Shown: positions 3,493 through 18,900, numbered from the stretch's first letter. The stretch: 64,000 nt of DNA from Microtetraspora niveoalba (GCF_001570405.1 NZ_BBYM01000011.1:164910-228909), one strand, 5' to 3'. The notes: generated by a model not told the origin, from the letters alone. Numbers and translations are program-made.

Positions 3493-5028
3493 GTGACCGA
3501 ACGGTTGAACGGCCCGCAGGCTCCCGGCGGCGACGACCTCGCCGCCGGGGCCTCCCCCGGACCGACAGACGCCTCCACGGCGCCCGCGGCGAGTTCCCCG
3601 GCGCCCCCTCCCGAGCCCCCGGCCGGCACCCGTCCGGCTGGGGACTCCCCCGAACCCCGTGCCTCCTCCGAACCCCCCGCTTCCGCGCAGTCCCCGGGCT
3701 CCTCCGAGGCGGCCGCGGCGGAGCCCCCCGCTCGTGGCGCCAAGGCGGCACGACTCGGCCCGTCACCCAAGATGGCGGTGCTCTTCCTGCTCCCGGCGCT
3801 CCTGCTGCTGGCCGCCTGGGTGATCTACCCCATCGTCTACTCGATCTTCCGGAGCCTGTACGACGCGGCCGGTGACGGCTTCGTGGGCCTGGACAACTAC
3901 CTGGCGATCTTCACGGACTCGGGCACGCTCACCACGATCAGGAACAACATCATCTGGGTCGTGGTGGCCCCGCTGATCGTGACCGTGCTCGGCCTGATGT
4001 TCGCGGTGCTGACCGAGCGCATCCGCTGGGCGACCGCATTCAAGCTCGTGCTGTTCATGCCGATGGCGGTCTCGCTGCTCGCCGCCGGCGTCATCTTCCG
4101 GCTCGTCTACGAGCAGGACCCGGACAAGGGCGTCGCCAACGCCGTCATCACCGTCGTGCACGACACCTTCAGCAGCAGCCAGGGCTATCCCGGCGCCCGT
4201 CCGCGGGAGAACGACGAGGCCCCCGCCGTGCTGAAGGGCGGCGACGTCGTCACCAGGCAGTCCGCGCAGCCCGGCGGGCAGGTCCTGATCCCGCTCGTCG
4301 GCCTGAAGCCGGACGCCGTCGCGAAGGCCCCTCCGGCCAAACCCGCCGGCTCCGGCGGCCTCAGCGGGACGGTCTGGCTCGACGTCGTACGCGGAGGCGG
4401 CGGCACGGTCAACCAGATCGACGACGCGGAGAAGGGGCTCGGCGGGATCACGGTCGAGGCGGTGGCGGACGGCCAGGTCAAGGCCACCACCGAGACGGCC
4501 GCCGACGGCACCTTCTACTTCTCGGGCCTCTCCGCCGGTTCGTACGACATCCGGCTCCCGAAGTCGAACTTCGAAGCGCCGTTCAACGGGCTCACCTGGC
4601 TCGGGCCGACCCTGATCACCCCGGCGATCATCGGCGCGTACATCTGGGTCTGGGCGGGTTTCGCGATGGTGCTGATCGCGGCCGGGCTCTCGGCGATCCC
4701 GCGGGACGCGCTGGAGGCGGCCCGCATCGACGGGGCCACGGAGTGGCAGGTGTTCCGGCGGATCACGGTGCCGCTGCTCGCACCGGTCCTGCTGGTCGTC
4801 TTCGTCACGATGGTCATCAACGTGCTGAAGGTCTTCGACCTGGTCTTCATCATCGCGCCGGGCTCGGTGCAACCGCAGGCGAACGTGATCGCGCTGGAGA
4901 TGTGGCGCGTGTCGTTCGGCGGCGGCGGCAACCAGGGCATGGGTAGCGCCCTGGCCATCTTCCTGCTGGTCCTGGTGCTGCCGTTCATGATCTTCAACAT
5001 CCGGCGGTTCAGGAGGGACGAGCGATGA
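3493..5028 (+). CDS. Sugar ABC transporter permease (MalF-like) with N-terminal Pro/Ala/Ser-rich extension and an inserted Cna-B/SdrD-B-like beta-sandwich loop domain
   Basis: 511 aa. Multiple TM helices and the EAA-type permease motif (IDGATEWQVFRRITVPL). The loop insert GITVEAVADGQVKATTETAADGTFYFSGLSAGSYDIRLP matches the SdrD-B / carboxypeptidase-regulatory-like signature. Confidence 0.85.
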   Translation: MTERLNGPQAPGGDDLAAGASPGPTDASTAPAASSPAPPPEPPAGTRPAGDSPEPRASSEPPASAQSPGSSEAAAAEPPARGAKAARLGPSPKMAVLFLLPALLLLAAWVIYPIVYSIFRSLYDAAGDGFVGLDNYLAIFTDSGTLTTIRNNIIWVVVAPLIVTVLGLMFAVLTERIRWATAFKLVLFMPMAVSLLAAGVIFRLVYEQDPDKGVANAVITVVHDTFSSSQGYPGARPRENDEAPAVLKGGDVVTRQSAQPGGQVLIPLVGLKPDAVAKAPPAKPAGSGGLSGTVWLDVVRGGGGTVNQIDDAEKGLGGITVEAVADGQVKATTETAADGTFYFSGLSAGSYDIRLPKSNFEAPFNGLTWLGPTLITPAIIGAYIWVWAGFAMVLIAAGLSAIPRDALEAARIDGATEWQVFRRITVPLLAPVLLVVFVTMVINVLKVFDLVFIIAPGSVQPQANVIALEMWRVSFGGGGNQGMGSALAIFLLVLVLPFMIFNIRRFRRDER

Positions 5029-8626: not shown

Positions 8627-9717
8627 TCAGGCGGCGAGTAAGCCGGGGGTGCGGCAGAGCCAGTCGTTGAGGGTGCCGGTGAAGCCGATCGGCGGGCCGA
8701 CGCTGAGGCAGGAGCCATCGGCGGCACGGCTGCCGAGCCGTACACAGAATGGGCGTTGATCGAGATCAGGGATTCCTGAGTCTCGGGGCACATGACCATC
8801 GTGGTCGGGGATTCCTGCCCCTCGGGACACGTGGCCATCGTGGTCGGAGGTTCCTGAGCCTTGGGAGACGTGGCGATCGTGGTCGGGGATTCCTGCCCCT
8901 CGGGACACGTGGCGATCGTGGTCCGGGGTCCCGGACACTCGCGACGGACGGTGATCGAGGTCAGGCGGGCCGGAGGCGCACACAGGCGCGCCCTCGCCTG
9001 TCGTCCCTCCTATCCACAGGTGCTCGCCGATCGTGCGGCGCCTCGCCTCCGGACTCGCGGCGCTCCATGCGAGGTGCCCGGCGAGCAGGCGCCCCGCGAC
9101 GGCGCGGAGCAGGGAGACCGTGCAGAGGCCGTGCGCACAGGCGGCTCCCTCCAGCATGACCTCGGGCAGGCCGAACCGTCTGAGGCCGCGAGTCGTGACG
9201 GTGAGGCAGGTGCAGGCATCGGTCGCCGCCGGATCCCACGGCGGGCAGGAGCCCTCGGAGCCGATCTCCGTGCTCCAGCCGAGCCAGTCGTCCTCTAGCC
9301 GGAACTCCACCGGCTCCGTCTGGCACCCGGATTGATGAGGGACGATGCCGCCGGTGAGCACATCGACGATCACGCCCCGGCAGGCGTCGGCGACGCCGCG
9401 CGCCACGGCCCTGGCGACCTGCGCGGCCTCGGGCTGCTCGGCGAGGGACGCGGTGGCGGTGACCACGACATGGTGGCGGGCCCCGCGCACCGCGTCCCGT
9501 CCCTCGTCGCCGAGGCTGACCCGCCGCCATGGCGACTGGGCGGCGGGAAACACCCGCATGCCCAGCCGAGGCGTGCCGAGCGCCCGCGCGGCGGCCCTCC
9601 TGTGCGGCCCGCTCATCCGCCAGGGAACGATCGAGTCCAGCTCAGCCGGCGGGCGTTCGGCCGCGACGACGAACACCGAGGTGGTCTCGGCCGGGACGGG
9701 ATAGGTGATCTTCATGG
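8627..9717 (-). CDS. Hypothetical protein with C-terminal 13-residue tandem repeats
   Basis: The ATG (MKITYPV...) is preceded by AGGAGGA. The C-terminus carries 5 copies of PDHD(R/G)HVS(R/Q)G(A/S)GI, encoded by an in-frame 39-bp DNA repeat. Confidence 0.5.
8768..8962. repeat. 39-bp tandem direct repeat, 5 copies, in frame within the 8627-9717 ORF
   Basis: Consensus gggattcctg(a/c)cnctcgggacacgtggc(c/g)atcgtggtcg, repeated head-to-tail without spacers. Confidence 0.8.
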
Positions 9718-10117
9718 GTCCTCCTGTCGGTCCTGGGCTGTCCGGCGTGCCGTGACGCGGCGGCACGGCCTGCGGCGTGAACCCAAGCCTGGGGTCAGAG
9801 CCGGCCGTCCCGCTGCACCGAACGCCACTCTGTGGATAACCCTGCTTGTCCACACCCTGACGGCCCCTTATCCCGGCCCCCTCAGCCCTCGACGGCCGGT
9901 CACCCGCCGCCGGCTCGGCGCACCTGGCGTCACCCACCCTTCCCATCCCCGTCAACAGCCCCGAATGCCGGAGGCCGACACCCGCCGACCAGCGCGCCCG
10001 GCGTCGACGAACCCGCCCCGGGACGTGTAGGGCCCCGGCAGGCGAACCCCCGCATGCTCGATGTCCTGCTCCGCCCGTCCCCGGTCAGGCGGAGCCGCGA
10101 CAAGTACGGGCGAGCCG

Positions 10118-11356
10118 TCACCCGCCCCGTACGGCGCCGCTCAGGAGCGCGGCGGCCGAGGCGGACCACCGCCTGACCTTGGGCCCGTGCCTGCGCCACC
10201 AGGTCCGCACCCAGAGCCCCTGTACGCCCGCCAGCACCGCGACCACTATCGCCGCGTCGACGACCGCCGGCGCGTCGCCGCCGTTCAGCAGGGTGGCGAA
10301 CGCCGGCAGCGCGATGGCCGCGAGGGCGGGGATCACGATCGTCCCCGCGACCGCCAGACACACCGCCGTCCCCAGCACGAGCAGCAACGTGTACAGCCGC
10401 ACCGCCGAACGCTCACGCCGGGAGAAGCGCGCCAGCGGGCTCACGCCGCCCCTGCCCGTGAGGCGCCCGATCAGGAACCGTCCGTACGCCACGCCGTCGC
10501 CGTACAGGTTCCTGCATCCGGCGAGATCCTGGGCGACGAAGTAGAGGTCGGTCCGCATGAAGATGAGGAGTTGGAAGCTCATCGCGTCGATCTGGGTCAG
10601 CACGACGATGGAGAGGGCGGTGTGGACGCCACCGCCCGGAGGAACGACGCACAGCAGGACGAACCCGGCAGCCGCGATGGCGGCGTCCAGGGTCATGCCG
10701 GCGAGGTAGACGGTCATCCGGACGTGCTTCTCCTCGCCCCAGACGCCGGATACGTCGGTCTGCACCACGAGGAACTGCAGGCGCGATCCAAGGGTGATCC
10801 GTCCGGGCACGCCGGCGGCCCGTGCGGTGCACAGATGCGCGAGCTCGTGCAGCATGACCAGGGACCAGGTGATGGCGATCTGGGTGAGCAGCGAGACGGT
10901 GCCGAAGCGGCTCCACGCCATGACGCTCGGGCTGGGCATGATCTCGGGCCGTACGGCGAGGGCGGCCAGCCCGCAGAGGATGAGCGCCACCAGCCCGGCG
11001 CGCACCCCCGGACGCAGGGTCCAGCGGACGTGACGGGGTTTCAACCAGGGAAGCGACGGGCTTTCCCTCCCGTCGTCGCCGGTCGGCCTGCCGTCGATCT
11101 CGGCGACGAAACCCACGCCCATGAGCGCCGCCACGAAGTCGGCCACGTCGACGTCCGTCCCGGTCTCGGCGGTGAGGCGTTCCGCGACACCGTCGACGGG
11201 GCGTCCCTCGGCCAGCAGCTCGATGACCCGCTTGCCGATGTCCGGGAAGGCGACGAACTCTCCCGTCTCCACCCGTCCGACGATCCAGTCGGAGCCGTCG
11301 CGGCGCGTACGGAGCGGGTGAAGCCGCACCCGCGACGTCCCGGTCACGACGTGCAT
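10118..11356 (-). CDS. Membrane HExxH zinc-metalloprotease-like protein with N-terminal PqqD-like RiPP recognition element (RRE)
   Basis: N-terminus (WIVGRVETGEFVAFPDIGKRVIELLAEGRPVDGVAERLTAETGTDVDVADFVAALMGVGFV) matches the PqqD/RRE pattern. It is followed by about 8 TM helices and the motif HELAHLCTARAAG. Alternative GTG start at 11458. Confidence 0.7.
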   Translation of the reverse strand: MHVVTGTSRVRLHPLRTRRDGSDWIVGRVETGEFVAFPDIGKRVIELLAEGRPVDGVAERLTAETGTDVDVADFVAALMGVGFVAEIDGRPTGDDGRESPSLPWLKPRHVRWTLRPGVRAGLVALILCGLAALAVRPEIMPSPSVMAWSRFGTVSLLTQIAITWSLVMLHELAHLCTARAAGVPGRITLGSRLQFLVVQTDVSGVWGEEKHVRMTVYLAGMTLDAAIAAAGFVLLCVVPPGGGVHTALSIVVLTQIDAMSFQLLIFMRTDLYFVAQDLAGCRNLYGDGVAYGRFLIGRLTGRGGVSPLARFSRRERSAVRLYTLLLVLGTAVCLAVAGTIVIPALAAIALPAFATLLNGGDAPAVVDAAIVVAVLAGVQGLWVRTWWRRHGPKVRRWSASAAALLSGAVRGG

Positions 11357-11547
11357 ACGAGGCCCCCCGCTTCGCCTCGCCGCAACGAGATCCCCGCCAT
11401 AAGGCACATATGAGGCACCCGACTGCGCCGCGCGCGGACGACGCCTCCCTCGAAGCACACATGCGAGGAACCCCGCTTCACCACGCGGGCCCCCTCACGG
11501 CGCACCTGTACGGCCTCCCGTTCCACCGTGTGGAAAGGGCGTGCCGG

Positions 11548-12657
11548 TCACACCGCGCATGTGCGACATCCGGCTTCGCCTCGGGGGAACTCGGCATATA
11601 TCGGCTGCTGCGGGGCGATGAGGTTGGTGCCCTGGATGAAACCGGCGATGATCGCGGGGACGCCGGTGATGACGCGGAGAACGCCGTGGGCGACCAGGTT
11701 GCCGCACAGTCCCGCCGACGTGGCGATCGCGCCGCCCCCTCCGAGATCGACCGGACGGTTCGGGGCGCCGGTCCGCCGGTCCCCGGGCGGGATCCGCTTC
11801 CGGTCCTCGATGCGCTGCATGCACTCGTAGCAGGCTCCGCGTCCCGGAACGAAGACACCGGTGGTGACGAGCGGCCCGCTGTAGCCACCGCCCACCCACG
11901 GGATCCCGGCGTCGAAGCAGGCCCGGCTGGCCCACACCCGGATGCCGTCCTCTCCCTTGGGCTCGTCGGCGCACAGGGCCAGCACGTCGAACCCCGGCAG
12001 CAGGTCGGCCAGCTCATGCTCGCTCCGGACGCGCGACGAGGCGCCGGTCACCTCGATGTCGGAGTTCAGTGCTTTCAGCCTCTCCACGGCGGCGTCCACC
12101 TTGGGACGGCCGACGTCCTCCTCGGCGTAGAGGAGCTGCCGGTTGAGGTTGGACAGTTCGACCCGGTCGTCGTCCACCAGGTGCAGGACACCCACCCCGG
12201 ACGCCGCGAGGGCCAGCGCGGTCGACGCGCCCGCGCCGCCCACGCCGATCAGCAGGACCCGCGACCGGCGCAACCTGAGCTGGGCGTCCCAGCCGTGCTC
12301 GCGCGGCGTGAGGTCCACCCACCGGAAGAAGGCGTGACCGCGGCTGTAACGGTCGCGCTCCCGCCTGCTGAGCTCGGGGGCCTCCGTCGCCCCGGCGTCC
12401 TCGATGTGGCCGGTGCCGACGAGCTGGGCGACTATCGCGACCGCGTCGTGCCGGGTCAGTTCCGGAAATCCCGACCGCACCACTTCGGCGACGTCGGCGC
12501 ACGTACGCGTGCCGTTCATCGCCTCGAGAGCCGTCCACACCCAGCCGTGTGGGTCGTCGATTTCGTGGGCCAGCCCGTAGATGTCGCCTCCGATGCGTAT
12601 CCGGCCGTCGTCGAGGCGATAGGCCGCGTGCTCGGGCTTTATTCTCGGCAACCGCAA
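11548..12657 (-). CDS. MccB/PaaA-like E1 (ThiF/MoeB family) adenylyltransferase with N-terminal RRE/peptide-clamp domain
   Basis: Rossmann motif LLIGVGGAGASTALALAASGVGVLHLVDDDRVELSNLNRQ and an RYSR motif. Two CxxC pairs (CYEC and a C-terminal CRTC) fit a zinc tetrathiolate. About 90 aa of PqqD-like N-terminal domain. TTG start with GGAGG upstream; the ORF could extend to 12762. Confidence 0.8.
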   Translation of the reverse strand: MRLPRIKPEHAAYRLDDGRIRIGGDIYGLAHEIDDPHGWVWTALEAMNGTRTCADVAEVVRSGFPELTRHDAVAIVAQLVGTGHIEDAGATEAPELSRRERDRYSRGHAFFRWVDLTPREHGWDAQLRLRRSRVLLIGVGGAGASTALALAASGVGVLHLVDDDRVELSNLNRQLLYAEEDVGRPKVDAAVERLKALNSDIEVTGASSRVRSEHELADLLPGFDVLALCADEPKGEDGIRVWASRACFDAGIPWVGGGYSGPLVTTGVFVPGRGACYECMQRIEDRKRIPPGDRRTGAPNRPVDLGGGGAIATSAGLCGNLVAHGVLRVITGVPAIIAGFIQGTNLIAPQQPIYAEFPRGEAGCRTCAV

Positions 12658-13014
12658 TCGGGCCTCCGGTAAAGATGGGAATCCCCCCGACCATTTCTCC
12701 CCCGTTTCGCTTCCATGTCTCTTGCGTTTCGTTTCCGCATCTCTTCGGCACCCCTTCCGCACGCTTTCCCCACCGGCCCCTGCTGTTTTCCGCGCCGTTT
12801 CCGCGGCGCGCTCGTACGCCGTCCTCCATCGGACACGGGAGGGCCGGGGCGGACGGAAGGCGGGTAAAGGCGCCGGAGGCGGCGGAAACCAGAGAAGGGG
12901 GCGGCGGGAGACGCGGTGAGGGGCGAAGACGTGGGCCCGGACCCGGGAAACGCGCAGAGCCGCGATCGGGCGCCGCGATGGCCTCCGCTCGTGGCTCCGG
13001 CCGCGCCGGGGAAT

Positions 13015-13184
13015 CAGTTACCGGTGGAGTTGCTCAGCCGCTCGGTCGTTTCGAGCCGGTCGAGCCTGCGAATCTCGATCTTGACCGCTCCTTCGGCGGA
13101 CCCGTTTTCCGCGGGCTTGTTCTCGTCGAGGTCCCTGAGTTCGCTCACGAGCTTCCTCTTTTCATCGGTTCGCCGCATTGACAT
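13015..13184 (-). CDS. Putative RiPP precursor peptide (56 aa, C-terminal Asn), candidate MccA-like substrate
   Basis: Unannotated small ORF, below the 60-aa cutoff of the ORF track. It encodes MSMRRTDEKRKLVSELRDLDENKPAENGSAEGAVKIEIRRLDRLETTERLSNSTGN. GC3 is about 80%. It sits immediately upstream of the MccB-like gene on the same strand and opens directly after an in-frame TGA. Local GC content dips at this position. Confidence 0.4.
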
Positions 13185-13277
13185 TGGCGACCAATTGGCA
13201 GTTGTCGCGGTTGTCAGGTTAGATCATCGGCAACCCGAGGGAAAGGTGTGATTTTCCAGGGGATTGCGAACCGCATG

Positions 13278-14570
13278 TCAGGGTGCTTTCAGCGACGTCG
13301 GCGCCTCCTCCGCCGCCGCCCGGTCCCGCCCCACCGGGGCGACGCCGCTGTGGAAACGCGTCATTCCGCGGAAAAAGAGGGCGGCGAGCGGAACGGCGAA
13401 ACCGCCGATCGTGCCGATCACCAGCAGTGCCGACCGGCCGATCGCCGTACTGACCGGGCCGGTCAGCGCGAGCCCGAGGGGCATCATCACCGAGGAGGCC
13501 AGCCAGTCGACGGATGTGACCCGGGCGAGCCGTTCCGGAGGGATCTCCCGCTGCAGATTCATGACCCACTGCACCGCGAAGATCTCCAGTCCCAGCCCGG
13601 CGACGATGTAGCAGCCGTACAGAAATCCGGACGACACGGGCCAACTGAGCGCGAGCGGCACGGCACCGTACAGCGCGAGGCCGATGACACCGGTCAGCCC
13701 GGCCCGGCCGGGTTTCCATTTCATGCTGATGAGTCCGCCGGCCAGGCCCCCGACCGAGAGCAGGGCGAGCGCGGTCCCGTACACGGCGTCGCCGCCGAAC
13801 GTGTCGCGCGAGATGAGGGGCAGCAGGACCTGCGCCGGCGCGACAGTGAGCATCAACTGGAGTGCGACGGCGATGATGACGCCGGTCACCCACGGCCGCC
13901 GCCACACTTCGGAGAGGCCGTCCGCGATCTCCCGTACGGCCGATGCCCGCGGGGCGGCGGCGACCGCCGGTTCGCGCAGCGGCAGGAGCAGGACGAGGCC
14001 GAGCATGTAGGCCGCCAGCACGGCGAGGAACCCGATCCGGGGCGACCAGACGGTCACCACGTACGCGCCGAGGCCCGGTCCGACGATCGCGCCGATCCGC
14101 CAGGAGACCGCGCCCATCGCCACGCCGGCAGCGCGCTGGTCCGGGGTGAGCACGGACGACAGGCAGGCCTGGTACGCGGGCCGGTGGAACGCCTCCGCCG
14201 CCCCCACCAGGAAGACCAGGAACGCGAGGAGCAACGCGGGGGCGTCGCCGCGCAACCCCACGGCGACCACGCAGCACTGGAAGCCAAGGGAGACGATCAT
14301 CACCGTTCTGCGGGGCAGCCGGTCCGCCCACAATCCTCCGAGCAAGGCGAAAAGGACGAGCGCGATCCACCGTCCGGTGAATATCGCCCCCACGGTCGAC
14401 GCGGTCCCGCCCGAGTTGAGTGCGGCGATGGTCACCGTGACCGGGAAGATCTGGTCGGCCGCGACCGACATCGTGAAACTGAGCCACAACAGACGGAACT
14501 CGCGATTTCGCACCAGGGATCCGTCGGCGGGACGGGCCGAACGAATGAGGTTTCGCAAACGAGTGCGCAT
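13278..14570 (-). CDS. MFS transporter (possible exporter or immunity pump of the adjacent cluster)
   Basis: 430 aa, 12 predicted TM helices, N-terminal FRLLWLS motif typical of MFS. Same strand, and 93 nt upstream of the small ORF. Confidence 0.85.
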   Translation of the reverse strand: MRTRLRNLIRSARPADGSLVRNREFRLLWLSFTMSVAADQIFPVTVTIAALNSGGTASTVGAIFTGRWIALVLFALLGGLWADRLPRRTVMIVSLGFQCCVVAVGLRGDAPALLLAFLVFLVGAAEAFHRPAYQACLSSVLTPDQRAAGVAMGAVSWRIGAIVGPGLGAYVVTVWSPRIGFLAVLAAYMLGLVLLLPLREPAVAAAPRASAVREIADGLSEVWRRPWVTGVIIAVALQLMLTVAPAQVLLPLISRDTFGGDAVYGTALALLSVGGLAGGLISMKWKPGRAGLTGVIGLALYGAVPLALSWPVSSGFLYGCYIVAGLGLEIFAVQWVMNLQREIPPERLARVTSVDWLASSVMMPLGLALTGPVSTAIGRSALLVIGTIGGFAVPLAALFFRGMTRFHSGVAPVGRDRAAAEEAPTSLKAP

Positions 14571-14819
14571 GTCACGAAATCATCCCTGCCAGGGTGAATC
14601 GTGCAAGAGATGAGATCTGTCACCTGCGTCCCAAACACGAGGATTTCCCCGATTGTCGAGCGATACCGCCCTTCCCGGAAGAGGACCCCTTCCCCACCCG
14701 GCGCCGCACCCGAAACCGTCCTTTTCGGCCCGGCACCGCCCCTGCGCCGCCCCGCCCTGCGAAGCTCCACCACCCTTTCCGGCATGGTGGCGCCCCTCGC
14801 GCTTTCACGCGAATGTCCG

Positions 14820-14844
14820 GAGTCCGGGCGCCCCTTCCGGACTC
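14820..14844 (-). terminator. Stem-loop terminator abutting the lysoplasmalogenase stop codon
   Basis: gagtccgg-(9 nt)-ccggactc, a perfect 8-bp stem. No U-tail, as is common in actinomycete terminators. Confidence 0.5.
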
Positions 14845-15636
14845 TCAGAAACCGGTGATCGTGCTTCTCCGGCGCACGATCGCGGAGGCGAGGAGATACT
14901 GGCCGACGATATAGGTCGCCATGATGGCGAATCCCCGGTACGGGAAATCGAGGTCGGCGATTCCGAACGCGATGAGCGTGTCCGACAGGAAGAACAACGC
15001 GCCGCCCACCCCGGCGCGCAGGCCGTACCAGGACGAGGTGATCGCGGTGGCGGTGAGCACCAGCGAGTACGCGGCGACCGGCACCTGAAGCGCGCCGAGC
15101 CCGGGCCAGAGCGCGGCGACGAGGACGACCCACACCACCCCGTAGACGGCCACTGCCACCCACGGGCCGCCCGCCCGCCGGCCGCGCACCTCACCCGGGT
15201 CCGCGGCTCCGCCGACGGCCGCGCTCCCCGCGTCGCCTCCCGTTCCGGTCGCACCCGCGCCGACCTGCCCGGCCGCGGCGAGGGTCCGGAAGGCGGGCCG
15301 CTCCCGTACGAAGAAGGTGATGTAACAGACGTGCGCGACGGCGAAGAACCCCATGCCGGGGACGAACATCCCGTCGATCTCCAGCGCGATGTCCCCGGCG
15401 GCCGAGGCCAGGAGGGCGGCCACGATGATCCCGGGGCCGCGCCGGGCGAGCACCCAGAGCGCGAGAAGGGGCATCAGCAGGGCCTTGCTCACCGGGTCGA
15501 GCAGGCCGGGCTCGGTGAGCACCGCCACCAGGTGGACCACCGAGCACGCCCAGAAGGCGATCAGCACCGGCCCGGCGAACCTCGCCGGAGCGCCGGGTAC
15601 GCGGTCTGACTGAACGGCATTCGGTGACTGGTCCAT
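14845..15636 (-). CDS. Lysoplasmalogenase (YhhN/TMEM86) family membrane protein
   Basis: 263 aa, polytopic, with YhhN-like hydrophobic pattern. Confidence 0.7.
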   Translation of the reverse strand: MDQSPNAVQSDRVPGAPARFAGPVLIAFWACSVVHLVAVLTEPGLLDPVSKALLMPLLALWVLARRGPGIIVAALLASAAGDIALEIDGMFVPGMGFFAVAHVCYITFFVRERPAFRTLAAAGQVGAGATGTGGDAGSAAVGGAADPGEVRGRRAGGPWVAVAVYGVVWVVLVAALWPGLGALQVPVAAYSLVLTATAITSSWYGLRAGVGGALFFLSDTLIAFGIADLDFPYRGFAIMATYIVGQYLLASAIVRRRSTITGF

Positions 15637-15904
15637 GCCCGGGATCCTAGTGAGCGGGTCTCACGTTAATAAGGCTCCCGAAGCCCGTCTTCGCCCCCTG
15701 AAACGGGTGGCGGCAGCCGGACGGTCACCGACGGCGGAGGAATGGACGACCTGTGATCTCCGCGCGACCGCACCGGCAAGCGACGCCGACGCTTCGTGCG
15801 GCCCAGCTCATCGGGAAGGCCGGCGCTTCACGCGGCCCAGCTCATCCGCAAAACCGGCGCTTCACCCGGCTCAGCTCATCCAGAGAACCGGCGCTTCACC
15901 CGGC

Positions 15905-17713
15905 TCAGCTCATCCGGAAGACCGGGCCGCGCGGGCGGAACGGGAGGTGGGCCGCGGCGGGGATCAGGAACGCGTGCTCCCTGCGGATCCGCACCACATC
16001 GCACGCGCCGTCCGTGATCACCAGGATCGGCCCCTCCGGCGGGAAGTCGTCGGCCCGCTCCAGCAGGTCGATCCCGGGCTGCAGGACCGTGCCGCCCCGG
16101 CCTCGTACGCGGACCTTCGCGGCGATGTCCTCCACCGCCAGATATCCGGCGTCGTACGCGGCGGCGTCGCAGAACACCACGCGGGCGCGCGGCACGTCCC
16201 TGGCGAGGGCGTAGGACGCGATGGCGCCCAGGGCCTTGCCGAGCAGCTTCACGTCCATCGAGCCGGACGTGTCGAGCACGACGCCGAAGGTCGCCTGCCG
16301 TACGACCTCCTCGGGGCGGACCCAGCCGGGGCGCGGGATGTCGGGCGTGGCGGACTGCCGCCGGGACGCCCGGCCGTAGGAACGGCGCCGCTCGACCGCG
16401 GGCACGTGTTCCTCGAACCAGCGCGCGAGCGCGGCGTCCCACGGCAGCGGGGGCTGGTCGAGCGCCCGGATCTCCTCTTCGAGCCCGGCGGGGACGTCGC
16501 CGCGCCCGCTGGTGCGGTGGTAGACGAGGCCGCTCGCGAGCGCGTTCCGGTAGTAGTCGTCGAGGTCGACGTACCGGCCGGGCGCCCCGGGGCGCGGCAG
16601 CGGCTCGCCGAGCACGTCGCCGACCCCGCGCCCGCGCAGGGTCGCGAGCTTGCGCAGGCGGCGCAGGTCTCCGGCGATCCGGTCGTAGACGGCCTCTCCG
16701 GACAGTCCCTTGAGCGCGGGGTCGTACAGCAGGCCCTCGGGCATCGTCCCGACGCCCATCTCGACCAGCCAGCCGTTGACGATGTAGTCGCAGGCGACGT
16801 TCCACAGGTACGGGTCGCGCCACCCGGCGCGGTCGCCGTGGCGCAGCGCGGCGTGCAGCATCTCGTGGGCCAGCACGAAGCGCCACTCGTCCGTCGTCAT
16901 CGAGCGCAGCGGGTTGACGTAGATCTCGGCGGCCTGGGCGTTGACGGCGGCCACGGAGATGTTCCAGGCGCGGGCGAGGTCGGCGTCCGCGACGATCGTC
17001 ATGCCGGTCGCGAGCGCGCCCAGCAGCGGGTACGACGACACGAACCAGCCCAGCGCGAGGTCCCACGGTTTCTTGACGCCGCCACCCCCGGAGCCCCGGC
17101 CGCCCGCGGCGTCGATGGCCCAGTACGCGGCGGCCGAGATCCCGATCGCGAACGACCGCTGGAAGTCCACCCGCTTGGCGACGTCCTCCGACCCCACGAA
17201 GAAGTCCGGATATTTCGTGGTCTGAAACTCGGCGGGCACCCCCGTCATCCGCCACCGGGCGGCCAGTGCCCGCTCGTCCTCCTGGGGGAACGGCGGTGGC
17301 GTCTCGGGCGGGCGGCCGATCTTCAAGGTGTGCAGGAACCGGTCGACGGCCACGCAGCACGCGGCGCGGTAGGCGGCCAGGGGCGCCCGTCGCACCTCGG
17401 GCGAGTGCGGGATCTCGTCCCGCCCGAGGTCCTCCTCCCCTGCGGTACGCGGGTCGAGGTGGCCGAACCCGGCGTGCAGCAGGCAGTGGGCGAACACCCA
17501 GGCCCACTCGAGCGGGTCCCCGCGCCGCTTCGGGTGGTGGTACACGCTGCCGCCCGCCGTGATGTACGCCCAGCCGTCGCTCGGCAGCCGGCCGTCGGGG
17601 GCCTCGTAGAGGTATCCGCCCAGCGACTGGAACAGCGGGTGCGCCCGCACCAGGGCCCACCCAGCGTGGACGGCCTCGCGCCACGGATCGGCCTTCCGCT
17701 TGCGCCGCGACAT
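15905..17713 (-). CDS. VWA domain protein with N-terminal DUF2201-type putative metallopeptidase domain (MoxR partner)
   Basis: HEMLHAALRH motif in the N-terminal domain, and a C-terminal VWA with MIDAS-like VLDTSGSM. ATG lies 1 nt after the MoxR stop. Confidence 0.85.
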   Translation of the reverse strand: MSRRKRKADPWREAVHAGWALVRAHPLFQSLGGYLYEAPDGRLPSDGWAYITAGGSVYHHPKRRGDPLEWAWVFAHCLLHAGFGHLDPRTAGEEDLGRDEIPHSPEVRRAPLAAYRAACCVAVDRFLHTLKIGRPPETPPPFPQEDERALAARWRMTGVPAEFQTTKYPDFFVGSEDVAKRVDFQRSFAIGISAAAYWAIDAAGGRGSGGGGVKKPWDLALGWFVSSYPLLGALATGMTIVADADLARAWNISVAAVNAQAAEIYVNPLRSMTTDEWRFVLAHEMLHAALRHGDRAGWRDPYLWNVACDYIVNGWLVEMGVGTMPEGLLYDPALKGLSGEAVYDRIAGDLRRLRKLATLRGRGVGDVLGEPLPRPGAPGRYVDLDDYYRNALASGLVYHRTSGRGDVPAGLEEEIRALDQPPLPWDAALARWFEEHVPAVERRRSYGRASRRQSATPDIPRPGWVRPEEVVRQATFGVVLDTSGSMDVKLLGKALGAIASYALARDVPRARVVFCDAAAYDAGYLAVEDIAAKVRVRGRGGTVLQPGIDLLERADDFPPEGPILVITDGACDVVRIRREHAFLIPAAAHLPFRPRGPVFRMS

Positions 17714-17714
17714 G

Positions 17715-18777
17715 TCAGCTCCGGGCGGAGGCGAGCCGGGGCAGGTCCCGGCTGACCTCGACGAGGAACCATGAGGGCAGCACCGGAGCGCCGTCGTCGT
17801 CGGTGGCGATGACGAGCTGGGCGCATTCGAGCGAGATCTCGGCCAGCTCGACGAGCAGGGTCTTGGCCCGGAACGCGAGCTGCCGCCCGGCCGCCGGGGC
17901 GTGCTCCTTCGAGGCGGGCAGCCCGCGGACGAGCCGGGCGCGGAACGTCTCGGCCAGGAAGTACAGCAGGTCGCGGTCCTCGGGCCCGCGCGGCCAGCCC
18001 GCGTCGCCCTTGAGCACGGCGTCCAGGTCGTACGCGTGCCGCACCGTCTTGACGTACGCGCGGAACGCCGAGGCGTGCGACGCGGTGAGCGTGCCGTGGG
18101 CGAGGACGGCCAGCGTGTCGTCGTCGAGGCCCTCGCCGTACGAGTGGACGGCGTCGGACAACATGTGCCAGCCGCGCGGCGTGGAGAACGGCTCCTCGGT
18201 CTTCGGCGCGGGGCTCCACAGGTGGTCGGGCCGCTGCACGAGATAGTCGGCGATCCAGGGGTGGATGCCGTTGCCGGCCGCCCATGTCAGCCAGTCGTCG
18301 GCCGAGGCCCGCAGGTGGACGTGCACCATCCGGTTGACCAGAGCGGACGCCATCGGCCTGGCGAGGGCGTTGTCGGACGCCCGGTTGCCCGCTCCGATGA
18401 CGACCGACCCCTCGGGCAGCTCGTACGCGCCGATGCGGCGGTCGAGGATCAGCGAGTAGAACGCCTTCTGCACCTCGGGAGACGAGGCGTTGAGCTCGTC
18501 GAGGAACAGGCAGTACGGCTCGTCGCGCGCGATGGTCTCGGGGGGTGCGAACCGGCTGCGGCCGTCCACGATCTGGGGCACGCCGATGAGGTCCTCGGGG
18601 GCGAGCTGCGTGCCGAGCAACGTGACGCAGTCCAGCCCGAGCGACGCGGCGAACGCCTGGACCAGCGAGCTCTTCCCGATGCCCGGCGCTCCCCAGAGGA
18701 ACACCGGCCGCACGACGGCGACGTGCAGCAGCACGTCGGGAAGCTGCGCCGGGGTCACGGTCACGGTGGCCTGCATG
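17715..18777 (-). CDS. MoxR-like AAA+ ATPase (AAA_5)
   Basis: Walker A GAPGIGKS and Walker B LFLDELN. Alternative GTG start at 18812. Confidence 0.85.
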
Positions 18778-18900
18778 GCGACCAGGCTCCCGTACGACCT
18801 ACCGGAAAGCACCCGATTTATCGGGACATGCCCGGCTGGCAGAAGCTCAGTGACCGGCTGACAGCAGCCGGGAACGCGACCTGTGCGTCAGACCTGTGTG

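Follow-up and report, generated by a model that had tools for sequence, protein, structure and literature searches.

A ribosomal-peptide maturation locus of Microtetraspora niveoalba represents a widespread actinomycete family that pairs a ThiF-like enzyme with an M50 protease

Analysis of a 64-kb stretch of DNA from Microtetraspora niveoalba (Streptosporangiaceae), hereafter the window, with a G+C content of approximately 70%, revealed a block of four minus-strand genes that encode a major facilitator superfamily (MFS) exporter, a short peptide, an E1/ThiF enzyme with two domains and a membrane metalloprotease of the M50 family. The four genes and their features, as proposed in an initial annotation of the sequence, were confirmed by open reading frame (ORF), Pfam, motif and model evidence. 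The cluster is a minimal pathway for a peptide that is synthesized ribosomally and modified after translation (RiPP), and it belongs to a widespread, previously undescribed actinomycete family, of which species-representative genomes of Streptosporangiaceae, Streptomyces, Micromonospora, Nocardia and others contain 308 or more loci. The universal core of this family consists of three genes, encoding the precursor, a ThiF enzyme fused to a RiPP recognition element (RRE) and an M50 protease fused to an RRE of its own, to which the lineage of the window adds the MFS exporter. Gene content, domain folds, synteny and the precursor family with its conservation pattern are established here. The features of the locus, in window coordinates, are:

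13278-14570, minus: MFS (DHA3-like) transporter of 430 amino acids, putative product exporter (Pfam MFS_1, E = 3e-33)
13014-13148, minus: precursor peptide, probably 44 amino acids from GTG 13148, (M)SELRDLDENKPAENGSAEGAVKIEIRRLDRLETTERLSNSTGN (ribosome-binding site, ATG in locus L002, NCBI protein P0314)
13014-13184, minus: longest ORF of the precursor, 56 amino acids from ATG 13184, ending ...ERLSNSTGN
13044-13079, minus: leader recognition motif IEIRRLDRLETT (family consensus IxIRxLDxxETT; family conservation)
13017-13043, minus: variable tail ERLSNSTGN, putative core, in which SNSTGN is of the commonest type, S-N-[S/P/A]-x-G-x
12955-12999, minus: stem-loop straight after the precursor stop codon (centroid hairpin), which might conceivably attenuate or stabilise the transcript
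11548-12657, minus: RRE-fused ThiF-like (E1) adenylating enzyme, 369 amino acids from the likely start TTG 12657 (Pfam ThiF, E = 1e-48)
12382-12657, minus: N-terminal peptide-clamp or RRE domain of the E1 enzyme, approximately residues 1-92 (model topology, alignment with the PaaA N-domain)
11336-11590, no strand: four degenerate tandem copies of the junction between E1 stop and protease start, an insertion specific to the window genome
10118-11356, minus: RRE-fused M50/site-2-protease-type intramembrane metalloprotease, 412 amino acids from the likely start ATG 11356, putative leader peptidase
11081-11356, minus: N-terminal RRE domain of the protease (PqqD/lasso-B1-like)
10835-10849, minus: HELAH zinc-binding motif of the protease, with H, E and H invariant in 24 homologues

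The precursor family and its synteny

A scan of species-representative genomes with the protease alignment yielded 308 related loci, of which the best 80, all from actinomycetes, were fetched; together with the window these make up the 81 loci referred to below. Peptides bearing the leader motif were present at 81/81 loci, with one to three at each and 95 in total, and in all of them the consensus IxIRxLDxxETT was followed by a tail of 6-13 residues. The motif occurred once in the 64-kb window, while in approximately 1 Mb of related loci it gave 95 matches, none of which lay more than 3.5 kb from the E1 and M50 genes. In an alignment of 49 peptides the R, L and E of the motif were invariant and the I, I, D, T and T at least 90% conserved; a lone exception with Asp in place of Glu lies outside this alignment, and the Thr positions are not invariant (ETI, ETV, EPT and ECT variants).

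The small ORF was kept in the orthologous loci L001-L007, where changes in its 3' half were mostly synonymous and variable columns made up 40% of the ORF compared to 71% of its flanks. It is a genuine precursor gene under purifying selection in these loci and not a chance ORF. The description of its product as an unannotated 56-residue peptide ending in ...LSNSTGN stood in part: the gene is real and conserved and has this end, but the peptide is probably 44 amino acids long and is already annotated by NCBI as a hypothetical protein (P0314). The start at GTG 13148 is preferred because of a conserved AAGAGGAA ribosome-binding site, an ATG at the same codon in L002 and the agreement with the NCBI protein.

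The E1 gene adjoins the protease gene in 79/80 fetched loci, the exception being cut by a contig end, and ORF clustering over the 81 loci showed that only these two are universal among the proteins clustered. The position of the precursor gene varies: it is found upstream of E1, between E1 and protease, downstream of the protease or, in many Streptomyces loci, upstream in divergent orientation. The co-occurrence of peptide, E1 enzyme and protease at 81/81 loci despite this variation counts for a RiPP pathway. Apart from E1 and M50, a gene for a DUF6879 protein of approximately 215 amino acids was found in 31/81 loci, where it sits between the precursor and protease genes (for example L081 9478-10119 and L019 3569-4252), and no further gene family was common to more than 14 loci; no mention of DUF6879 was found in the literature searched. 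In the Microbispora loci L081 and L082 a gene for a 142-amino acid protein and a small XRE-type helix-turn-helix gene also lie just downstream, and in Streptomyces locus L083 an M14 carboxypeptidase gene is divergent, just upstream of E1. The divergent precursors are on the opposite strand to E1 in nine Streptomyces loci (L048, L065, L067, L072, L073 and L075-L078, at approximately 4540-4750) and read ...IRPLDKKETT followed by GESGGNGGS or GDSNSQGA.

A profile search of 5.8 billion proteins retrieved 126 peptides at E <= 0.001, and all of the 120 listed were either nameless or called "hypothetical protein". The window peptide matched none of the NCBIfam and Pfam models, and no description of the precursor-E1-protease family was found in the searchable literature, which did not cover subscription-only papers. 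Two or three precursors with the same leader and different tails occur in L014, L023, L029, L032, L038, L045, L068, L071 and L075; the tails in L045, for instance, are SPTSPND, GLIAAL and SATDVDN. Two paralogous loci coexist in individual Microbispora genomes, and each has a tail of its own (AFSQGNST, TSSNSVGN or Q[T/S]YSGNSNS) that is retained from species to species.

The two RRE-fused proteins, the exporter and the flanking DNA

The E1 enzyme contains the motifs GVGGAG, ERDRYSR, CYEC and CRTC in addition to its ThiF domain. Across 32 homologues the GxGGxG motif, D162, NLNRQ, K184, D229 and both zinc-binding CxxC pairs were invariant, and so were the Arg residues in the RYSR segment, whose Tyr was at least 90% conserved; because the adenylation residues are invariant, the protein is predicted to be an active adenylating enzyme. 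Its AlphaFold2 model (predicted local distance difference test, pLDDT, 89.9) shows an N-terminal b-b-b-b-H-H-H-b domain followed by the E1 Rossmann domain. A Foldseek search with this model recovered full-length MccB, with template modelling (TM) scores of 0.71-0.75 over approximately 370 aligned columns, and PaaA, while ThiF and MoeB were matched in the catalytic domain only. Comparison by sequence with solved structures (phmmer) placed PaaA first (5FF5, E = 8e-32, residues 2-202, N-domain included), and the matches to MccB (1e-25), ThiF (4e-24) and MoeB (4e-23) covered the catalytic part alone. The Pfam model PaaA-like_N remained below its cut-off on the E1 enzyme itself (E = 0.003) and matched 10/32 family members (best E = 1e-4). 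With IndF, whose sequence was taken from the supplement of the Ind paper (PMC12150305), BLASTP gave an alignment over the full length including the N-domain (E = 2e-17, 21% identity). The modelled fold and the PaaA N-domain alignment thus bear out the MccB/PaaA two-domain architecture that had been assigned to this protein, namely an RRE clamp joined to an adenylation domain.

The protease likewise carries an RRE of its own at the N-terminus and the HELAH motif, as had been noted. Its HExxH lies in a transmembrane helix and it has the core fold of site-2 proteases, which places it among the M50/site-2 proteases; the AlphaFold2 models behind these folds have pLDDT values of approximately 90. 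An RTDxYFxxQD segment downstream of HELAH is also invariant in 24 homologues and may supply the third zinc ligand. A search of 1.84 billion proteins at E <= 1e-30 gave 246 representatives of 50%-identity clusters for the protease family. Since a natural ThiF-RRE-M50 fusion (P0459, 768 amino acids) and a radical-SAM/SPASM-RRE-M50 fusion (P0487, 830 amino acids) exist, the RRE-M50 unit appears to be a general partner of RiPP maturases. Three homologues of 629-693 amino acids have some 200-270 extra residues without a Pfam match, located C-terminally at least in P0393. An RRE-bearing membrane metalloprotease had been put forward as an undescribed component, which holds for microcin C systems but not for RiPPs in general: daptide clusters contain RRE-site-2-protease fusions, and the M50 proteases EpeP, TglG and TmoG act in the epipeptide and 3-thiaglutamate pathways. 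Because of these precedents the protease is regarded as a RiPP peptidase of an established type whose pairing is new.

The MFS transporter, placed at 13278-14570 from the outset, has its best NCBIfam matches among DHA3-type exporters (H+ antiporter 2A0121, Tet(V), Mef and EntS). Outside the window and L001-L007 its gene is not linked to the cluster, and it is therefore considered a lineage-specific accessory gene.

Gene boundaries were also revised for the two larger proteins of the core. Their longest ORFs span 11548-12762 (E1) and 10118-11458 (protease), and the likely starts are TTG 12657, where the resulting N-terminus MRLPRIK agrees with homologues, and ATG 11356. With the revised starts the intergenic gaps amount to approximately 129, 356 and 191 nt, and not to the 10-100 nt given in the initial annotation. 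Between E1 and protease the genes of the window are pushed apart by the junction copies, which are approximately 51-53 nt each with 61-73% identity to the reference copy. Orthologues L001-L005 have a single copy, in which the two genes overlap by 14 nt, from protease ATG to E1 stop, and L006 has a smaller duplication of the junction of 29 nt. A mobile element was considered for this insert of approximately 200 nt and rejected, as it had no plasmid match and consists of decayed tandem junction copies.

The spacer between precursor and E1 differs in length among orthologues (approximately 104-356 nt) and reaches its maximum in the window genome, where it contains short tandem repeats of 11 nt and 22 nt at 12691-12774 that are GCGGAA-rich on the coding strand. 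The hairpin at 12955-12999 had a folding energy no better than that of shuffled sequences (z = -0.36), and its 3' arm is invariant in six orthologues; it was rejected as a terminator on account of this energy and of a terminator scan without a coding-strand match. A promoter scan returned zero sites, and an Rfam scan of 9500-15000 gave no match.

The flanking ORFs scanned comprised a YhhN-family protein, a DUF2201-domain protein and two without a significant Pfam match. Upstream on the same strand (14845-18812) lie the genes for the YhhN-family membrane protein, for the protein with DUF2201 putative-metallopeptidase and VWA-like domains and for a 365-amino acid ORF (17715-18812) that resembles an AAA ATPase by eye only; these neighbours are common only to Microtetraspora loci and appear unrelated to the cluster. 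On the other side, ORF 8627-9955 (minus strand), a gene conserved within Microtetraspora only, contains at 8769-8945 a 39-nt tandem repeat (4.5 copies, 81% matches) that encodes 13-residue repeats (..DHDGHVSRGAGIP..) in a 442-amino acid protein without a Pfam match. Because the flanking genes are common only within Microtetraspora, the boundaries of the block were set at the MFS and protease genes.

Tail register and proposed chemistry

The tails were analysed as a set of 117 unique sequences. Length is tightly distributed: among the 95 locus peptides it is 8 residues in 46 and 9 in 28 (8 or 9 in 74/95), and 7-10 residues in 91/95, which fits a fixed distance between RRE and active site. The last residue varies and is N in 56 tails (48%), G in 16, S in 15, A in 12, T in 5, R in 4 and D in 3, with others making up the remainder. 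A side-chain nucleophile recurs near a fixed distance from the C-terminus, with Ser, Cys or Lys at -6 in 88/117 tails and at -6 or -5 in 103/117. In a subset of 71 tails on which a shuffle test was performed, 61 had such a residue at -6 compared to 35 +/- 4 after shuffling, and 0/20,000 shuffles reached 61. The -6 register is kept as tails lengthen (8-mers 42/49, 9-mers 28/35, 10-mers 11/12, 11-mers 5/6 and the single 12-mer 1/1), and the register counted from ETT drifts correspondingly from +3 to +4 and +5. Two types of hexapeptide, always at the peptide end, are prominent: S-N-[S/P/A]-x-G-x in 51 tails, including SNSTGN of the window, and S-x-G-N-S-x in 10 tails. Lys occupies -5 in four tails that follow the leader variant ETI and end in Arg (QAKAPAR and its relatives), and Cys occupies it in several, for example SFCATEM and TLCMSEA. 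A separate E1 clade in L023, L029 and L032 is accompanied by Cys-rich tails (CVCECHCG, GLCCDDCG, CEEEGCEGAGG and QACPANNPGCGAG) that look metal-binding or multiply cross-linked and may undergo a different chemistry.

Characterised RRE-ThiF RiPP enzymes all activate a carboxylate with ATP, and the five chemistries described, those of MccB, PaaA, GrcB, EnfB and IndF, each begin with carboxylate adenylation (PMC12596934). For the present family we infer the carboxylate that is activated, the nucleophile that attacks it, the site of cleavage and the biological role. An even chance is given to a pathway of RRE-guided adenylation of the C-terminal carboxylate, intramolecular capture with loss of water, leader removal by the RRE-M50 protease and export by the MFS transporter. 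The 44-amino acid precursor would be held by the N-terminal RRE of the E1 enzyme through the leader motif IEIRRLDRLETT, and the enzyme, with ATP and Mg, would adenylate a carboxylate of the tail, most likely the C-terminal alpha-carboxylate, which lies at a nearly fixed 8-9 residues past the motif. The acyl-adenylate would then be captured inside the peptide with loss of AMP, for a net change of -18 Da, so that no nucleotide is expected to be retained on the product; the computed [M+H]+ of the 9-mer is 959.454 when dehydrated and 1306.517 with AMP. The likeliest nucleophile would be the conserved Ser at -6, which would give a six-residue C-terminal macrolactone, and in sister loci Cys at that place would lead to a thiolactone and Lys to a lactam. 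The Ser(-6) lactone ERL-cyclo[SNSTGN] is accordingly named, tentatively, as the most likely single product in the window. Such a ring would hold the conserved Gly and often Pro, which are turn-favouring residues. The membrane protease would bind the same leader through its own RRE and cleave at or near ETT, after which the MFS pump would export the product. The full-length homology of the E1 enzyme to IndF, a C-terminal macrocyclase, counts for this mechanism, as do its retained adenylation residues, the tight tail length, the -6 register and the precedents for RRE-M50 proteins as partners in RiPP maturation.

Several observations weigh against it. In 8-mer tails the -6 and +3 registers coincide, and in the Cys-containing tails Cys is fixed at +3 from ETT although these tails have 7 to 13 residues; an anchor at Glu, or some other chemistry, suits this subgroup better, and its E1 enzymes make up a clade of their own. 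Significance is overstated by the shuffle test, because the tails are Ser-rich and share a common ancestry. Of the 117 tails, 14 lack Ser, Cys and Lys at both -6 and -5, and GLIAAL lacks any side-chain nucleophile. The near-invariant Thr-Thr or the Glu of ETT could itself be a reaction partner, and in PaaA, to which the enzyme is nearest by sequence among solved structures, the activated group is a Glu side chain and not the C-terminus.

It is rather unlikely, though the best placed of the other explanations, that the C-terminus is activated and the product is something other than a Ser lactone. The outcome could then be an imide, either an aminosuccinimide in tails that end in Asn or a backbone imide of the kind suggested for EnfB; alternatively, a Thr of ETT could form an ester and so close the entire tail into a ring, or a cellular amine could amidate the peptide. 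Precedents are the succinimide intermediate of MccB and the imide of EnfB, which also amidates with free amines; the conservation of TT at 90% or above together with the tight tail length would fit a ring of fixed size, and the GLIAAL tail would be accommodated. This explanation does not account for the retention of Ser, Cys or Lys at -6 or -5; moreover, neither Thr is invariant, and IndA has TT as well, yet its nucleophile is Trp.

Activation of the ETT Glu, by chemistry like that of PaaA and GrcB, is improbable. The E1 enzyme would here adenylate the gamma-carboxylate of this Glu, the C-terminal residues would be a follower, and the activated group would be captured either by an amide of the backbone, to give an imide, or by Ser, Cys or Lys between +3 and +5, to give a lactone, thiolactone or lactam. 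That PaaA is the best solved sequence relative with the N-domain included speaks for it, as do the invariance of the Glu in the 49-peptide alignment with its lone Asp exception elsewhere, the 96/117 tails in which one of Ser, Cys and Lys occupies +3 or +4, the constant +3 position of Cys and the fact that GrcB joins a Glu side chain to Cys. On the other hand, the dominant Ser class tracks the C-terminus and not ETT in tails of 8 to 12 residues, and IndA has [D/Q]TT before its cyclised C-terminus, where the TT region is not the reaction site. The ETT Glu also abuts the strand presumed to be bound by the RRE, whereas Glu16 of PaaP lies five residues past the recognition motif.

The initial annotation had read the locus as a microcin C-like peptide-nucleotide cluster, and of this reading the RiPP nature stands while the peptidyl-nucleotide part does not. 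Under a microcin C-like Trojan-horse scheme, the C-terminal Asn would pass through a succinimide to a peptidyl-AMP or -NMP phosphoramidate, and the protease would trim the leader or provide immunity. The window peptide and its Microtetraspora orthologues do end in Asn, the commonest last residue of the family, the E1 model superposes on full-length MccB, and the MFS exporter has a counterpart in MccC. The N-P bond, however, needs a terminal Asn, and its conservation fails in the orthologous loci, an outcome that the initial annotation had itself named as refuting: among MFS-containing orthologues L005 ends in ...STGA and L006 in ...PSGS, orthologues with E1 enzymes 77% identical end in Ala or Ser, the partner tails of an E1 group formed by single linkage at 62% identity or above end in N, A, S, T, Q or R, and about half of all tails have another residue. 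By sequence MccB is matched in the catalytic domain only, whereas PaaA and IndF align with the N-domain included. In agreement with the initial annotation, the scanned neighbouring ORFs, which did not comprise every flanking ORF, contained no MccD, MccE, MccF or TldD/E homologue, and neither HIT nor any further gene known for McC immunity turned up among them. A published survey of ThiF-type enzymes placed those of microcin C in a separate group whose precursors all end in Asn (PMC11256085). In view of the varying terminal residue the peptidyl-nucleotide model was rejected as the principal explanation and is considered very unlikely; a terminal Asn beside an E1 enzyme is insufficient to call a microcin C system.

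A non-RiPP locus, with a ThiF/MoeB/MoeZ sulfur-carrier activator as the E1 enzyme, an incidental small ORF and an unrelated site-2 protease as the membrane protein, has next to no likelihood and was rejected: the strongest catalytic-domain family matches are indeed the ThiF and MoeB models, but the NCBIfam ThiF, MoeB and MoeZ models all scored far below their trusted cut-offs (for example 126 vs 275 and 122 vs 449), the N-terminal RRE has no counterpart in ThiF and MoeB, the block contains neither a ThiS/MoaD-like partner gene nor a rhodanese domain, and peptide, E1 and protease stay together at 81/81 loci despite rearrangements, with E1-protease fusions also known.

The reaction types of ThiF-like RiPP enzymes have so far been five (phosphoramidate, indolizidinone, thiolactone, imide and indolylamide), and reviews of 2025 state that most of the enzyme family is unexplored. 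Should C-terminal capture by Ser, Cys or Lys be right, ThiF-like enzymes would gain a new type of reaction, macrolactone formation onto the C-terminus, and the locus would supply a compact leader-guided enzyme for the cyclisation of peptide C-termini. It would also place small cyclic peptides in the main antibiotic-making bacteria, where such peptide signals are not known. The family is large and cleanly bounded in actinomycetes and has a substrate that can be predicted from its invariant leader motif and from the hexapeptide anchored at its C-terminus, and the need for only three genes together with a clear candidate reaction makes it a good lead for genome mining.

Comparison with known systems

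Among systems with solved enzyme structures, MccB of microcin C (3H5N, 6OM4) is the best structural match over both domains, and the microcin C cluster resembles that of the window in its MFS exporter. MccB activates the C-terminal carboxylate of a ribosomal peptide, as proposed for the E1 enzyme of the window. The window precursor differs in having 44 amino acids with a long leader, and the terminal Asn is not conserved in its family. PaaA of pantocin A (5FF5) shares RRE-dependent leader binding, and the E1 enzyme aligns with it through the RRE-like N-domain. In contrast to pantocin A, the window family lacks the PaaB oxygenase (among the ORF families at the 81 loci) and the EamA exporter, and none of the 95 locus precursors or the 120 listed database precursors has an EEN core. 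The follower of PaaP is 12 residues long, and activation of a Glu side chain leads from PaaP to a small bicyclic derivative of a tripeptide.

EnfB of enterofaecin and the other surveyed ThiF-RiPP systems are similar in their ThiF-type enzymes, conserved C-terminal motifs, short precursors and ATP-driven dehydration (PMC11256085). None of the precursor types of that survey (WWIII, NWYFI, VEGR, NICxxxK, CxxxC and GxxQY) matches IxIRxLDxxETT followed by S-N-x-x-G-N (PMC11256085), and the enf cluster differs in having no peptidase. As in IndF- and EnfB-type systems, the window encodes an RRE-ThiF fusion beside a short precursor, with conservation anchored at the C-terminus. The protease resembles daptide MpaP-type proteins, which have an RRE N-terminal to an intramembrane M50 protease and occur in actinomycete RiPP clusters with several short precursors (bioRxiv 10.1101/2023.03.08.531785). 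Daptides differ in their leader (ELExMEAP), their invariant C-terminal Thr and their partner enzymes, which are a decarboxylase, an aminotransferase and a methyltransferase, with no ThiF enzyme.

The Ind system of Streptococcus pneumoniae and S. equi (IndA, IndF and IndP) has the same parts, namely a precursor, an RRE-ThiF enzyme, a Zn peptidase and a transporter, and the C-terminal carboxylate of IndA is adenylated by IndF, which joins it to a side chain four residues upstream to form a ring (PMC12150305). Both systems have a short conserved C-terminal peptide just after [D/E/Q]-T-T, and the chemistry proposed here is alike. The differences are that the Ind peptidase belongs to M16 and that of the window family is an RRE-fused M50 protease; that the nucleophile of Ind is Trp at -4 (NWYFI), whereas the window family has no Trp and carries Ser, Cys or Lys at -6 or -5; and that Ind hosts are Firmicutes and those of the window family actinomycetes. 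IndA (...LELEFEEIREEDTT-NWYFI) shares hydrophobic spacing and [D/E/Q]TT with the leaders of the window family, as a visual lead only. Homology between IndA and the precursor family was set aside as unproven, since the hidden Markov model of the family gave no alignment to IndA or SeIndA with filters off and the post-hoc pattern fits 23/95 members.

In the predicted topology of its product the family would resemble the staphylococcal autoinducing peptides (AIPs), and the sister tails SFCATEM and TLCMSEA look AIP-like. AIPs of the AgrD/AgrB type consist of a short exocyclic tail and a ring of 5-6 residues closed from a Cys or Ser side chain to the C-terminal carboxylate. The AIP ring is formed by AgrB through cysteine-protease transacylation, whereas an ATP-dependent E1 enzyme is present in the window family, and no AgrC/AgrA-type sensor is linked to it. 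It is possible, at well below an even chance, that the family represents a new class in which a ThiF/E1-like enzyme closes a 5-6 residue ring from the C-terminal carboxylate to Ser, Cys or Lys (lactone, thiolactone or lactam); as part of this class, and no less tentatively, the AIP topology would be reached by an unrelated ATP-dependent route with release by an RRE-guided intramembrane protease. A signalling role for the peptides is pure speculation, which the paralogous Microbispora loci with their own conserved tails would fit if the products were specific signalling molecules. Set beside these systems, the family is a new variant among ThiF-type RiPP systems.

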